This document shows, piece by piece, positions 29,717 through 57,618 of a stretch of DNA of 64,000 nt. The stretch spans positions 969,033-1,033,032 of the forward strand of contig CBDBPI010000001.1 in assembly GCA_965208725.1 (NCBI GenBank), given 5' to 3'. Every line of letters begins with the position of its first letter. Within the stretch, counting starts at the first letter, position 1. The notes under the pieces were generated by a model. That model made no database searches. It had not been told where the DNA came from and saw only the letters and a list, made by a program, of their open reading frames with translations. The stretch comes from Dehalococcoidia bacterium. GTDB taxonomy: Bacteria > Chloroflexota > Dehalococcoidia > Lucifugimonadales > GCA-2712585. The translations under genes were made by a program, and so were the position numbers.

Positions 29717-30256
29717 ATGACTACAACTGGCAAGCAGAAGACCAACTGGCCGGACAGGCTTCGCGAGATTAGCAAGTACGTGAATCTGACCGAGGAGGAC
29801 CGTAAGCTGATACGCTCCACGGGCCCCATAGTGCGCCGGTATTCGGACCAGTTGACCACGGAAGTCTACGACCTCATCTTCGAATTCCCCAATGCAGGCC
29901 GGTTCTTCTCCTATGAAGACGGCACGCCGGACCCCAGGCGCGTCAAGGACAACAAGGACTCCATGATGCAGTGGCTGAACTATCTGGCCCAGGCTCCTTC
30001 AAACGATGCCTTCGCCCGCTACCTGATAGCGGTAAGCGCCATGCATCGGGACATCCCCATCCACCGACCCGGACTGCCCCCCGTCCCCACCCAGTTCGTC
30101 ATCGGCACTATCTCCTGGTATCAGACCCGCCTGATCCAGATCTTCGAGGATGAACTCGGCGACCTGCGCAAAGCCGCGGAAGCCAGCGTAGCCTGGAACA
30201 AGATGCTCATGGTCTCCCTCGACATCCTCCTCGGCGCCTACCTCCTCGACTCCTAG
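29717..30256 (+). CDS. Protoglobin/sensor-globin domain protein
   Basis: YVNLTEEDRKLI..VYD..YLIAVSAMH..AWNKML globin-sensor pattern. Confidence 0.8.
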   Translation: MTTTGKQKTNWPDRLREISKYVNLTEEDRKLIRSTGPIVRRYSDQLTTEVYDLIFEFPNAGRFFSYEDGTPDPRRVKDNKDSMMQWLNYLAQAPSNDAFARYLIAVSAMHRDIPIHRPGLPPVPTQFVIGTISWYQTRLIQIFEDELGDLRKAAEASVAWNKMLMVSLDILLGAYLLDS

Positions 30257-30506
30257 CTACCCAGCGTCCCCAGCTGGAAGCCCTTTGAATAACTCTGCCA
30301 CGAGCGGCCAATAACCTCTTCCCCCTCTCCCGTCCTGGGAGAGGGTTGGGGTGAGGGTGTTTCCCCCTATCCGCTCACCCTGAGCCTGTCGAAGGGCCTT
30401 CTTTCCTCTTCCCCCTTGATGGGGGAAGATTGAGATGGGGGTGATTCCGGTGAGAAGCCGTGGATGGGTATGTCCCCCGTAGGGGCAACCCTTGTGGTTG
30501 CCCTCT

Positions 30507-30798
30507 TCCGCTTTGCCGCCAAAAAGTATCAAGTGATCTGCCAAAAAGAAACTCCAGTAACATTCCCCGATACTATGTGATACTTTTCGCCCCAAAAGTA
30601 TCATTTGAGTGCCCAAAAGGATACTCCAGTATCCTTCAATCGTTAAATTGGCCTTCTAAAGATACTTTTAGCCCAAAAAGTTCCCCAATCTCACCAAAGG
30701 GATACTGGAGTATCCTTCCACTAATCTATTATCCTGTGAAAGATACTTTTGGGGCGAAAAGTATCCCAATCCCGCCGAAAGGATACTGGAGTTTCCTT
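30507..30798. repeat. Array of alternating palindromes, period about 81 bp
   Basis: GATACTTTT-N6-AAAAGTATC at 30579, 30661, 30742; AAGGATACT-N2-AGTATCCTT at 30617, 30698, 30779; degenerate fourth unit 30507-30564. Confidence 0.88.
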
Positions 30799-31943
30799 TG
30801 CTGAAAAGGCTTGGTCATAATCCACACGGAACCCTGGTTCCCACTGTAAAGAATCAGATGGCCTTCGTCCCTGCGGCCCTTCCACGTCTGTTGAATCTGA
30901 GCCCGCATCTCGTGTGGTCGCTTGATAATGCGTCCAGAGCTGTAGCGTCGCTGTCAGCCATAGGCGAAAACATGCAGAATCCACACTTGCTCATTGCTCC
31001 AATGATGCGGAGAGAGGCCTTGTTGTCCTCTCGCATCGAAGGGACCATTGCGTCCTTATCCGACGTGCTATCCCACGAGGCGATTCGCATAAGGCGTCCC
31101 AACGACGACGTAGAGGAAGTCATCAACTATGTGGATGCCCTTGACCTGGGAATTTCGCTGCTGGCAGACATGCCTATTTCCTACAGGCTGGTAAATGAGG
31201 TTCATAGAGTTCTCTTGTCCGGGGTGCGCGGGCAGGAAAAGCGGCCTGGGGAATTTCGCACCCTTCAGGTTTGGATTGGCGCGCCAGGGTCTTCAATCAG
31301 TAACGCAAGGTTCGTCCCGCCACCGCCGGACATCCTGCGAGACCTGTTCCAGGACTGGGAAGAGTTTGCCAACGCGGACTTGAAGATGCCGCCCCTTGTG
31401 AAGTGCGCGCTGATGCACTATCAGTTTGAGGCAATCCATCCGTATCGTGACGGTAACGGAAGAATCGGACGTCTGCTCATTACCCTCTTTCTGAAGGCAA
31501 GTGGCGTCTTGTCTAACCCGTTGCTGTATCTGAGCGCCTACTTCGAGAGAGAACGGCAACGGTACTATGACGAGCTTTTCAACGTCAGCGCTACGGGCGA
31601 CTGGGAGCGGTGGCTGGAGTATTTTCTGAACGGCGTGTTTAAGGAGTCCCAGGACGTAGTCGAGCGAATTAGGCGGCTGCGTGACCTGCAGGAAAAGCAT
31701 CGAGCGCAACTTCTGGGAAGAAGGGCATCGGCCAGTGAATCACTTCTGTTGGACGAACTGTTCGCGAATCCCTTTATGACGGCTCCGAGGGCCAGCGAGA
31801 TTCTGGGGATGACGCCGGCCGGTGCGCGCAGGGCTTTGGGCAGGCTGGCTTCGGCGGGAATAGTACGGGTTGTTTCCGACCACCGGCCCCAACTATACGT
31901 GGCAGATGAGATTCTGGAGATTCTGGACGCGCCGGAAGCTTAG
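30798..31943 (+). CDS. Fic family protein (Fic_N, Fic, C-terminal HTH-like)
   Basis: AFVPAALP, REALLSSRIEGT, HYQFEAIHPYRDGNGRIGR Fic motif. Confidence 0.94.
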   Translation: MLKRLGHNPHGTLVPTVKNQMAFVPAALPRLLNLSPHLVWSLDNASRAVASLSAIGENMQNPHLLIAPMMRREALLSSRIEGTIASLSDVLSHEAIRIRRPNDDVEEVINYVDALDLGISLLADMPISYRLVNEVHRVLLSGVRGQEKRPGEFRTLQVWIGAPGSSISNARFVPPPPDILRDLFQDWEEFANADLKMPPLVKCALMHYQFEAIHPYRDGNGRIGRLLITLFLKASGVLSNPLLYLSAYFERERQRYYDELFNVSATGDWERWLEYFLNGVFKESQDVVERIRRLRDLQEKHRAQLLGRRASASESLLLDELFANPFMTAPRASEILGMTPAGARRALGRLASAGIVRVVSDHRPQLYVADEILEILDAPEA

Positions 31944-31957
31944 GGCGATTGGGGAAC

Positions 31958-32032
31958 TGGAGCGGGCGATGGGATTCGAACCCACGACGTCTTGCTTGGG
32001 AAGCAAGCACTCTGCCACTGAGTTACGCCCGC
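31958..32032 (-). tRNA. tRNA-Gly(CCC) with encoded CCA
   Basis: GCGGGCG/CGCCCGC-T-CCA; CTTGC-TTCCCAA-GCAAG anticodon arm; GGTTCGAATCC. Confidence 0.96.
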
Positions 32033-32175
32033 TGCATTCAGGCTAGGCCGTGCCTGGATGTCGATGGTAATACGCCCCTCCAAACAATGTCAATCAGCCA
32101 CCGTTGCCCTACTCTGCCTTGACACCCGCTCTCCCCTCCCCTTTAATCTAGCCAATCCCTCCCGAAAGGCCGCCC

Positions 32176-34746: not shown

Positions 34747-35526
34747 ATGGACGCTAACCCCAAAACCCTGTGGCTCTCCCAACGAAGGCTGGAGTCCCTG
34801 CTCGACGTGCTCGACCAGGCCCCGCCCATGGACGCCATAACCCTGCTCCTGCCCCCCGGCGCATCCCTGGACGCCATAACTCCCACCAACGAAGAGCAAG
34901 CTCAGTGGCTGAAGCAGATGCGCGAAACTGCCCCCGACCGCCTGTGGCAGTCCGAGACGGGTGCCGTCCTCTTCTGGAGCGAATATCTCAGACTTGCCAT
35001 TGAACCCCCCTTCCCCCTGGAGTCGACGTCCCTGCGAAACGGCATCAGCGTCGGCCCTCTCCAAACCCTGCTGCGCCGGGAGCCCCTTATCGCCGTTGCC
35101 CTCCTCAGGCTGGGAAGCTACTCCGTCGGCGTCTTTCGAGGGCGTCGTCTCCTCGACGCCAAGACCGGCACCCGCTACGTCAAAGGCCGCCACAGCGCGG
35201 GTGGGACCTCCCAGCGTCGCTTCGCCCGGGTGAGGGAGAAGCAGATCCACTATCTCTACGCGAAGGTTTGCGAGGTAACTCTAGATAAGCTGGGTCCCTA
35301 CGAAAAGCAGCTGGAGCGCGTATTCCTCGGCGGCGAACGGCATACCCTCTCAGGCTTCGTCAAGGAATGCCCCTTCCTTCAACGCTTTGAGCCAATAACA
35401 TCAACTCGCATCCTGCCCGTGCGCGAACCCCGCAGACGTGAACTGGAGCGAATGCCCAACGAAATCTGGAAGAGCCGCGTTACCGTCTTCCGCCTCCCTG
35501 AAGATTTCCCCTTCGACGGTCTCTAA
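34747..35526 (+). CDS. acVLRF1 (Vms1/ANKZF1-like) release factor family protein
   Basis: LLRLGSYSVGVF..KTGTRYVKGRHSAGGTSQRRFARVRE..VFLGG. Confidence 0.85.
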   Translation: MDANPKTLWLSQRRLESLLDVLDQAPPMDAITLLLPPGASLDAITPTNEEQAQWLKQMRETAPDRLWQSETGAVLFWSEYLRLAIEPPFPLESTSLRNGISVGPLQTLLRREPLIAVALLRLGSYSVGVFRGRRLLDAKTGTRYVKGRHSAGGTSQRRFARVREKQIHYLYAKVCEVTLDKLGPYEKQLERVFLGGERHTLSGFVKECPFLQRFEPITSTRILPVREPRRRELERMPNEIWKSRVTVFRLPEDFPFDGL

Positions 35527-55707: not shown

Positions 55708-57618
55708 ATGATTCTTCCTAAAGATCGGATGAACTTTAGGTACCGATTGCATTTTCTTGCCGACGTGACTGCTTTGCAAATCCTGTGTAGCCCTGAAGCT
55801 GTCGCTCTCCTGGAAAATGCGATTGAACCACTCAATTCTGGACACCGACGAAGTTTCCTTCGCGGTTATCGACTAGCCGTCGCCACACCCTTGCATGGCC
55901 TGTTTTGGTTTGTGGATGACCACCCGGAACTGCTGGGGTTTGAATACGACGACGGGCTTTACAACTGGCTGCACTATACCCGTGGGAAACGTAAGGGGTC
56001 GCTGTTGTCGGCGATTTCCGATCCAACATCCGATTTAGGACGCCTCTGCCACGTGTTCAATGGTCTTCAGGTTGCTTTACGCAGGGCTGATGGCGGCTTG
56101 GCAGATACGGTTGTTGCCATTGAAAAATGTGGAGTGGTAGCGTCGCGATTTTCCGAAGTTCTGGCAGGAACAGAGATTATTTCTTTGGATACAAGAGAAG
56201 CTCTGCATGAAGGAGAGTCCTTGCTTCGCATGTGTTTGGCAGAGCGGATACTGGATTATCTCGATTATGACCGTAGTATTGTCGCCCTAGCTCTTGAATT
56301 AGTATGGAGCGGTGGAGAAGAGTTCCGTCCTATTGACGACCGTTTCGTTTTGGATGCCGAGACCCATTTGGATGACGTCGCATTATTCCCTTTCACATCG
56401 AGGATTCCAGAAGAGTGGGGAGACGGTTTTTGGTTTGGCTGCGACCTGGTCATCCAGCTAAATAAAATTGTTCTACAGTCTCACTCCGATTCCGCTCCCC
56501 TCATCTACCAGGACTGGTTAGAAGATCTCCTCACTTTTGTGAATCCATTAGCTCAACCGAGGGAATGGCCAAGCTGGAAGTATGGATTGACTGAGTTTTC
56601 ACAACCTAGTATAGGAAGACTGCTAGACGATTTCGAGGTGAATATGGATACTGTCTCTTCGAAGCATAGACTTGCGGCGATCCTGGGTCCTGATAGAGTG
56701 CGTCTGATGACCTCTGCCGGAGCAACCGACCCCATGGAGTTGGAAATCATGCTGGGTGGAGCGGTCGCCGCCTGCGGCGATTCTGGGATCCGAGTTCTGC
56801 TCTTGAGCCACTCCGTAGCCGCGGATAACCATGAATGGGTCTCCTTAGCATTTAGACTTCCAATGTACGGCAGCGCACTTGGCTCTAATGCCTCGAAGTG
56901 GTTTTTGTTCTACAAGATGTATTACCAGGGAGAAGTGTTTGAATCTGACGTTGTCCGTGCTCATAAGGGAGTGCAGGAGTTACTCTTGCGGTTCAAAGAC
57001 AATCTGGAGATAGAAGAGCTCGACGGGCTAGATTCTACGGACTTCTTACCCTATTGTACGTTGCCGGCCTTTCGTGCAATGCAAGAATTGAGCAAAAGGG
57101 CAGTTAGCACGAATTCTGACTTGCGCTCAGTGAATTCCGAACTATTGGCTGGATTATGGCTAGCGGCCCAAGGCTATCACAACGTTAAGGTCTCATTCGA
57201 GCGTGCTTCATTGGGTAAATCTGACTACGATGCGGTCGGTGTGAAGGACGGTCAGTGCTTGGTTATTGAAGTTAAGAGCGCCAATGTCATTGATGTCAAA
57301 CTGCAGAATGAGATTGACAAGTTTGCCAATAGAATAGATCAACTGCGTGGTCGATTGCCCGTACTAGCAAAGGCTTTGGGATGTAGCTCTGACATCCATA
57401 ATGTTTCAGGGTTGTTCGTCCTTTTGGGTGACTTAGGTGGCTTCAAACCAGCTAATCCTTCGATTCCTCTGTGGGGCTACGACGATTTTCTGGACGCATT
57501 GAAAGCAATAGACTTACCTAACAGAATCGTAGGTTCATTGGACAGGTCTCATATTATCCATTCTATCCGGAATCGCGACTTTCCAGATGATCCGTCTCTT
57601 GCCGGATTGGAAGATTAG
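55708..57618 (+). CDS. Unknown 636-aa protein with C-terminal PD-(D/E)xK-type nuclease motif
   Basis: [33 protein letters not shown]; long intact ORF of lower GC. Confidence 0.7.

Follow-up and report, generated by a model that had tools for sequence, protein, structure and literature searches.

Alternating palindromes upstream of a SoFic-family Fic gene of a Dehalococcoidia bacterium: a candidate self-repression operator array with a tandemly multiplied control unit

The DNA considered here is a stretch of 64,000 nucleotides from a Dehalococcoidia bacterium (assembly GCA_965208725.1, contig CBDBPI010000001.1, positions 969,033 to 1,033,032, forward strand), hereafter called the window. Between window positions 30507 and 30799, two palindromes, A and B, follow each other in strict alternation with a period of 81 bp, as seen both by direct reading and with computational tools, and reach the start codon of a gene encoding a Fic protein. 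We propose, with a rough probability of 0.68, that through these palindromes a Fic gene of the SoFic family is repressed by its own product, and that the array of operators arose when the entire control unit was multiplied in tandem. The proposal is based on sequence comparison and on analogy with Fic proteins of known function.

Anatomy of the array

The array of this genome is composed of 3.5 units (Table 1). Palindrome A displays the consensus GATACTTTT-N6-AAAAGTATC and palindrome B the consensus AAGGATACT-N2-AGTATCCTT; they share an inverted half-site, GWWACT, whose two copies are 12 bp apart in A and 2 bp apart in B. A preliminary description of this DNA had reported 3.5 alternating units with an 81-bp period and inverted GATACT half-sites, and this was confirmed here by direct reading and pattern searches; its statement that N2 and N12 differ by one helical turn is correct as arithmetic. 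Cores were indeed encountered in both orientations, CGCCCC in A1 against GGGGCG in A3 and CC in B0 and B1 against GG in B2 and B3. Complementarity amounted to 93% over 30 nt between A1 and A3 and to 100% over 18 nt between B1 and B2. The last B was said to overlap the Fic start, and B3 and the TTG codon do so by one base.

Successive B sites, from B0 to B3, started 72, 81 and 81 bp apart (24-mers of repeat family D2). A CC-core element such as B0 was kept at loci L005, L007-L009 and L012 of related genomes (loci and genomes of the comparison carry L and G numbers). Two 81-nt units showed 72% identity, and the repeats were overall 72-88% alike. Tandem Repeats Finder reported no array at 30507-30799 because units that are only 72% alike are too diverged, and this is therefore no argument against the repeat.

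The motif is genuine, its frequency far exceeds chance, and it does not belong to the dispersed repeats of the REP or MITE type. The A pattern matched the window three times against 0.00 expected from 100 shuffles. GATACTNNAGTATC, with at most one mismatch, gave four window matches (three in the array, one at 56247) where 0.05 were expected, and four were reached in none of 100 shuffles. In the whole genome (2.88 Mb, 59.8% GC), which contains 348 GATACT and 328 AGTATC hexamers, all five inverted GATACT-N(0-40)-AGTATC pairs were located within the array, so that the motif is unlike the REP families, as had been claimed. When one mismatch was allowed genome-wide, three B sites of the array were the sole matches. 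Among 401 sampled genomes of the phylum, matches were found in this genome and in one other, the latter with a single site.

Other readings of the repeat were tried and rejected. A large palindrome centred on A2 was discarded because the site spacings are unmirrored (46 versus 35 bp from centre to centre). The 81-bp period corresponds to 27 codons and was considered as a coding repeat; no frame was open across the array in all seven loci checked, the open frame varying by locus, which excludes a conserved repeat protein, and Pfam found nothing in open reading frames (ORFs) 30460-30804 and 30257-30616.

Table 1. Features of the array, the Fic gene and its neighbours (window coordinates)
Feature	Position	Strand	Description
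A0	30507..30530	.	Outermost A, degenerate; 5 mismatches to the A consensus; right arm AAAAAGTATC alone well kept; within 55-nt repeat D3
B0	30541..30564	.	Degenerate, GAAACT-CC-AGTAAC, core CC; 83% identity to B1
A1	30579..30602	.	GATACTTTT-CGCCCC-AAAAGTATC; 0 mismatches
B1	30613..30636	.	CCAAAAGGATACT-CC-AGTATCCTT
A2	30661..30684	.	GATACTTTT-AGCCCA-AAAAGTTCC; 2 mismatches
B2	30694..30717	.	GGGATACT-GG-AGTATCCTT; 18-nt core is the exact reverse complement of B1
A3	30742..30765	.	GATACTTTT-GGGGCG-AAAAGTATC; 0 mismatches; exact reverse complement of A1; -56 from the start
B3	30775..30798	.	Gene-proximal B, -18, core GG, 1 mismatch; covers the ribosome-binding site and the first start-codon base
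Sigma-70-like site	30577..30604	+	GTGATA-16-TATCAT on both A1 arms; best match of the region, 9/12 consensus positions; candidate promoter
Shine-Dalgarno GGAG	30788..30791	+	Includes the GG core of B3; 6 nt before the TTG start
Fic gene	30798..31943	+	381 aa; TTG start 30798-30800; Fic_N, Fic and predicted C-terminal winged helix (about residues 326-367)
Protoglobin gene	29717..30256	+	Pfam assignment; conserved left neighbour of the slot
tRNA-Gly(ccc)	31958-32032	-	3' end faces the Fic stop, 14 nt away; bounds the variable slot

Conservation and register in the genus

The Fic protein was searched for in 41 related genomes and was present in 21 of them. Orthologues from the same genus were found in eight genomes with 66-91% identity, two being broken genes. 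The preliminary description had asked whether the array is absent from close Fic homologues or scattered over the genome; it was present upstream of all eight orthologues (8/8) and was not scattered. Relative to the start codon, A sites started at -56, -137 and -218 and B sites at -18, -99 and -180, with deviations of at most 1 nt; the A at -56 was encountered with this precision in 9/9 loci. The number of units ranged from two to five: about two at the two broken genes, three in G004 and G009, about 3.5 in G003 as in this genome (G000), four units of 139 bp in G001 and five in G008 and G011.

In an ungapped alignment of eight species, the majority fraction of the proximal unit was 0.78 for A arms and 0.84 for B arms against 0.60 for spacers, and that of the next unit was 0.68 and 0.71 for arms against 0.50 for spacers. 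The best-kept upstream block, CTGGAGT.TC.TTTG, was situated at B3. This gradient, from 0.78-0.84 through 0.68-0.71 to 0.53-0.56 with increasing distance from the gene, could also be read as the trace of a functionless by-product, namely of replication slippage provoked by the palindromes, with extra units drifting and the proximal unit alone mattering; the loss of upstream start codons and the variable unit number point in the same direction. We consider such an origin very unlikely since the arms of the second unit still exceeded its spacers, the 81-bp register was free of indels across species with diverged spacers, and tandem multiplication upstream of the gene recurred in several unrelated clades of the family (see below).

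Across the genus, 15 of 23 GATACT-N2..12-AGTATC sites were located at Fic loci or at a Fic remnant, and the other eight did not rise above the 14 matches of a reversed control pattern. A GATACT-N11-AGTATC sequence, GATACTCCAAAGGTCCTAGTATC, was encountered away from Fic loci at G004:C2:1329464, G008:C1:183095 (one base different) and G010:C1:2031282; it is probably an unrelated conserved sequence of these three species.

Metagenome contigs of four runs were aligned to the locus; such contigs leave minority core orientations invisible. Run X1 provided a contig identical to the array locus. Runs X5 and X6 contained a diverged strain with an equal number of units, 43-47 substitutions and a single 1-nt gap; the differences listed included two G>C changes in the A3 core, at 30751 and 30753.

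Content of the repeated unit

In relatives the repeated unit extends into the gene. Each 139-bp unit of G001 (L010) repeats GGAG, ATG and six codons, with the GGAG-to-ATG spacing as in this genome. Two more distant Dehalococcoidia relatives displayed the same kind of repetition, L099 with units of about 126 bp that include the start and about 17 codons, and L028 with units of about 71 bp that include the start and two to three codons. Because B carries the ribosome-binding site and because the units of relatives include the start and first codons, the array can be described as a promoter/operator/ribosome-binding site/start module multiplied head to tail. The long spacers of L007-L009 (G004, G008 and G011) agreed with the first 30 nt of the gene at 17-18 of 30 positions (p<0.0005), and the upstream copies of this genome were devoid of start codons. 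The 24-nt spacers are thus best regarded as probable decayed coding remnants of the gene's own first codons. In upstream units at L099 1214-1520 and L010 1080-1500, GGAG and a start codon were preserved together with the opening 6-17 codons of Fic, and short peptides mimicking the Fic N-terminus could be translated from them.

Two further functions had been suggested in the preliminary description, a recombination or res-like site array and a dual-repeat array processed into small RNAs. Cores in both orientations and regular repeats with variable spacers would suit a phase-variable inversion array or a CRISPR-like RNA array, and we nevertheless hold both to be largely refuted and highly improbable. 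Neither a recombinase nor a cas gene was detected among the larger neighbouring ORFs scanned, as had been stated for the adjacent genes, and an att-like repeat was equally lacking there. Homology of the spacers was seen across species and, in relatives, with the 5' end of the gene, and the repeats, at 72-88% likeness, were not near-identical. Orientation differed in cores of 2 or 6 nt alone and not in segments, and the contig of the second strain had the same number of units. The proposed small RNAs are further disfavoured by the non-pairing changes encountered in the arms, by the lack of a strand bias in folding and by the absence of an Rfam family for the array. A match of the spacers to phage DNA was not obtained: both 24-nt spacers gave 0 exact matches in viral contigs. 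The A pattern matched viral contigs eight times, each time singly, and the DNA retrieved around these matches contained neither a Fic motif nor more than six half-sites near any of them; they are read as chance palindromes in AT-rich phage DNA.

DNA sites or RNA stems

The palindromes could alternatively act as RNA. Transcription from about A1 would produce a 5' untranslated leader of about 200 nt carrying hairpins, in which B3 sequesters GGAG and the start and thereby limits translation or sets mRNA stability. The position of the best promoter-like match on A1 (Table 1) is in keeping with such a leader, as are a B3 that includes GGAG and abuts the start, and arms that would fold with mean single-site energies of about -5.5 (A) and -2.8 kcal/mol (B). 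In L007-L009, one true double change preserved pairing (GATAC/GTATC to GATGC/GCATT).

The pairing itself was found to be imperfect. The 23 distinct A sites provided 207 arm pair cells, of which 160 were Watson-Crick, 14 G-T, 7 A-C and 26 other, and 32 of 168 cells were non-pairing in B sites. In 11 of these 23 A sites, position 3 showed T:T with no compensating change. Self-complementarity was lacking in the B nearest the gene at L007-L009, L011 and L012, although its two halves both fitted GWWACT in most cases. The plus strand of A was more stable in 14 cases and the minus strand in nine, with one tie (Wilcoxon p 0.22); for B the corresponding figures were eight, eight and seven ties (p 0.33). 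An Rfam scan returned the tRNA as its sole match and no family for the array. Half-sites that are degenerate and often non-pairing, combined with folding that lacks a strand bias, favour protein-binding DNA over RNA hairpins, and a structured leader appears unlikely.

In a fold of the whole leader, the flipped cores let A1 pair with A3 and B1 with B2. This long-range pairing was absent in L005 and L006, which again disfavours a leader, and the flips were not common to G003 or G009. Small hairpin-loop inversions, or quasipalindrome template-switch mutations, are known to replace the unpaired centre of a palindrome with its reverse complement, the arms being left unchanged. The comparisons of A1 with A3 and of B1 with B2 show the same flipped centres with kept arms. 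The flips vary between species, in keeping with neutral events, and our preferred explanation of the flipped cores is a neutral inversion of that unpaired centre through hairpin formation or template switching.

The Fic protein

The catalytic motif HxFx(D/E)GNGRxxR was present as HPYRDGNGRIGR, with Y replacing F, and residues H214, D218, G219, N220, G221, R222 and R225 were invariant in an alignment of 13 relatives. The inhibitory helix motif (S/T)xxxE(G/N) was N-terminal and read SSRIEG (S77-S-R-I-E81-G82), with S77, E81 and G82 invariant in that alignment. Pfam assigned the domains Fic (68.3 bits, cutoff 24) and Fic_N (82.7 bits, cutoff 26.7). Residues 285-381 alone (97 aa) matched the winged-helix protein eS25 (E 3.2e-6) and the PH1932 regulator (E 0.43).

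The PADLOC SoFic model was matched with E 1.2e-112 over 353 of 361 profile positions, SoFic structure chains with E of about 1e-36 over residues 44-373, and the CccR chain 7xux_A (PDB 7XUX) with E 4.5e-19. The NCBIfam equivalog NF046030 gave 176 bits against a cutoff of 550, and the protein is therefore a member of the SoFic family and not an orthologue or equivalog. From its sequence it would be a SoFic-type class II Fic protein with the domain order Fic_N, Fic and predicted winged helix.

The same genome harbors a second SoFic-family gene at C1:959880-961031, about 8 kb before the window, with 44% identity. This paralogue displayed upstream repeats of its own (TTATTAAGCGTTGCG twice and CTTAATAAG inverted), and its recognition helix differed. 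At C1:947867-948448 there was a third Fic match, a more distant one. In genome G007, a free-standing open frame of 96 codons (G007:C3:257933-258178) was 68% identical to Fic residues 300-381, the winged-helix end; this genome contained no GATACT palindromes of the array type, and the frame could be a remnant or a stand-alone binder.

Distribution over the Fic family

The family set was composed of 80 loci of other species and of the relatives from the 41-genome search. Nineteen of the 80 loci, L077 among them, were left out beforehand, mostly because the match began far into the protein or at the edge of a contig, and loci with too little upstream sequence were also dropped. A 6-mer enrichment test, which is blunt, gave p <= 0.01 in only 14 of 74 family loci and was superseded by scans for inverted and tandem repeats.

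Inverted repeats with arms of 7-18 nt were encountered at about -40 to -100 in most family loci, and other Fic clades carry upstream palindromes of their own with different half-sites. Motif classes tracked presumed recognition-helix classes, in groups that were defined after looking at the data. In these post hoc groups, at least three copies of GWWACT were found in 7/9 loci of the present clade, at least three of CGxWAAxA in 12/18 'AFTTAQR' loci from many phyla against 1/54 others, and at least three of CTTTSAAAG in 3/3 'PTAR/K' loci.

Tandem repetition upstream of the gene, defined as at least 42 of 60 identical positions at a period of 30-170, was detected in 15 of 70 family loci and in none of 70 coding controls, whose maximum was 36/60. 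Ten of the 15 loci were outside the orthologues of this genus, and the 15 as a whole included several unrelated clades. The upstream repeat periods clustered at 41, 51, 72-73 and 81-83 bp, which are close to whole helical turns at about 10.2 bp per turn.

Locus context and history

The order protoglobin, array, Fic and tRNA-Gly was found in eight of nine loci. In G001 the slot was empty, with the protoglobin gene abutting the tRNA, and Fic gene and array were located together at another locus. There (L010 1-1416, minus strand), the next downstream gene on the same strand encodes an AAA_5 domain with weak STAND/NACHT-like matches, which hints at a defence-island setting. In G006 (L026) and G010 (L025), the slot between protoglobin and tRNA-Gly was occupied by DUF433 and PIN_10/DUF5615 genes that replace Fic; in G010 the PIN_10/DUF5615 gene follows the DUF433 gene and the two look like a toxin-antitoxin pair. 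One A-like palindrome, GATACTTTTGCGGCGTTTAGTATC, was retained in G006 although Fic had been replaced.

The position of the module at the 3' end of tRNA-Gly was described correctly beforehand, the tRNA lying on the minus strand 14 nt past the Fic stop. A tRNA-targeting integrative island was considered and rejected: no integrase was found among the neighbouring ORFs scanned, and no direct repeat of the tRNA 3' end (att-like) at the slot borders, the far one included; slot occupancy is nonetheless variable. Judged from these comparisons, gene and array act as a single mobile unit, and the slot is a small hotspot of variable content in which no integrase was found.

These arrangements also bear on whether the sites might be operators of a different DNA-binding protein encoded elsewhere. 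Helix class and half-site do not correspond one to one, and the palindrome of G006 persists without Fic, as such a binder would allow. Set against this, the sites were confined to Fic loci in each genome of the genus, they moved with the gene to its new locus in G001, and the neighbours (protoglobin and tRNA) are not regulators. In addition, the relatives CccR and SoFic are reported to bind their own promoters (PMC9755527; bioRxiv 10.64898/2026.07.09.737422). A binder other than Fic is accordingly held to be improbable.

Other observations concern the surroundings of the array and the tRNA. Past the protoglobin stop and ahead of the array, window positions 30293-30510 are occupied by a GC-rich cluster of REP-like repeats. 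Metagenome contigs of 4/4 runs accumulated on this cluster, with numerous joints and loose ends and with word depths in the thousands. The cluster was absent at the equivalent spot of G003, where the array begins about 50 nt past the stop. A promoter-like site, TTGACA-18-TACCAT (10/12), was located just upstream of tRNA-Gly(ccc) at 32064-32093 on the minus strand, and an ORF at 34747-35526 displayed an acVLRF1 / bacterial eRF1-like release-factor domain.

Comparison with known systems

Type II toxin-antitoxin operators provide one point of comparison. In phd-doc, for instance, where Doc has a Fic fold, a separate antitoxin binds palindromes over its own promoter, so that little of the toxic enzyme is made. 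Here a single polypeptide combines the toxin with the presumed repressor, without a partner gene.

The closest precedent for such a fusion of functions is offered by Fic proteins with a C-terminal helix-turn-helix (HTH). According to PMC9755527, CccR of Yersinia pseudotuberculosis is a Fic protein of this kind whose dimer binds an inverted repeat near the -35 and -10 boxes and represses its own promoter; the operator PcccR is given there as AGATAATCAT-N26-ATGATAATCT. Like the present protein, whose HTH is a predicted one, CccR is a class II Fic enzyme carrying an HTH at its C-terminus, and both genes are preceded by inverted repeats. As in CccR, these are located at the promoter and ribosome-binding region of the gene itself (A at -56 and B at -18, both conserved). 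CccR relies on a single pair of 10-bp boxes (AGATAATCAT) separated by 26 bp, whereas seven to eight sites were found here in two geometries (N12 and N2), with the half-site GWWACT and a tandemly repeated unit that contains the ribosome-binding site. CccR is moreover described as a secreted effector of the type VI secretion system; no sign of secretion was encountered here.

SoFic of Shewanella oneidensis (SO_4266/mloA), a single-gene anti-phage system, resembles the present protein in the order of Fic_N, Fic and winged helix, the last being a prediction here. According to bioRxiv 10.64898/2026.07.09.737422, SoFic binds as a dimer to the 100 bp immediately preceding its gene. For the homologue EcSofic, PMC12249575 reports that the wild type was clonable only behind three lac operators and was too toxic with one, and that a small antitoxin, AS1, is encoded downstream. 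An AS1-like gene is impossible at this position of the present locus because only 14 nt separate the Fic stop from the tRNA. A literature search that covered publications without their supplements found none on tandem operator arrays in front of Fic genes.

Proposed mechanism and its weighing

The preliminary description had listed a multi-site operator for the C-terminal HTH of Fic as one possibility. This possibility gained support here from 8/8 orthologues with the array in register, from the uniqueness of the array in the genome, from its joint movement with the gene in G001, from the palindromes of other Fic clades and from the precedent of CccR and SoFic. The ancestral unit would have consisted of palindrome A (-56 to -33, probably over the promoter boxes), palindrome B (-18 to -1, over the ribosome-binding site) and the gene start. 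Duplicated head to tail, it would have left the 3.5 copies of this genome, the upstream ones minus their start codons. We infer that Fic dimers use the C-terminal winged helix to bind A and B and thereby repress the gene that encodes them, with the promoter situated at the proximal A. Blocking would be exerted by the promoter-proximal A and by the B that overlaps the ribosome-binding site, and the upstream copies would serve as extra binding sites that tighten or buffer the repression of an enzyme toxic when over-made.

Several observations weigh against this proposal. The winged helix is a prediction from sequence, Pfam HTH_24 scoring 18.9 bits and hence below its cutoff of 21.9. The gene-proximal A3 fits only about 6/12 sigma-70 positions (by eye) against 9/12 for A1, 219 nt upstream, so that much of the array could be transcribed leader. 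On the plus strand, 29 G-T against 13 A-C cells were counted over the arms, a weak hint of RNA pairing, although the cells of this excess are mostly inherited copies of few changes. The spacers of this genome agreed with the 5' end of the gene at only 10 of 30 positions (p ~0.23), their resemblance being gone. Gene and upstream DNA are co-inherited, and co-occurrence in relatives is therefore not independent evidence. Finally, there appears to be no simple helix-to-motif code: L028 and L029 have a similar helix with 0 and 1 copies of GWWACT, respectively, and L068, L080 and L039, from other phyla, carry GATAC-type palindromes despite quite different helices. In these last three loci, a GATAC-type palindrome near -62 was accompanied by GGTATC at the ribosome site, which suggests that a single A-plus-B unit is old.

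The occurrence of two spacings raises the question of how one protein would read both. As reported in PMC12249575, the C-terminal domain of a Sofic homologue moves upon ATP binding. Two conformations of the Fic dimer, compact on the N2 spacing of B and extended on the N12 spacing of A, might account for the two geometries, an idea that we regard as a long shot. If it were true, the nucleotide or activation state of Fic would be coupled to its own synthesis, and the six to ten dimers on 3.5-5 units would be a store of defence toxin that stays on the DNA until a trigger sets it free.

Meaning for SoFic-type proteins

Self-repressed Fic circuits are of an already known kind, and the multiplied whole control unit is the variant proposed here. 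Its distinctive traits are one half-site at two alternating spacings, units with ribosome-binding site and start, a copy number that varies between species, and flipped cores. SoFic-type Fic enzymes are widespread single-gene anti-phage toxins, and the locus bears on how they are silenced and then switched on. It offers a conserved and testable candidate operator with a GWWACT half-site, two spacings and a fixed position at the promoter region and the ribosome site. Recurrent unit multiplication, together with half-sites specific to each clade, may help to work out how the Fic winged helix recognises its DNA, and it raises the question of what benefit extra operator copies would bring to a self-repressed toxin.

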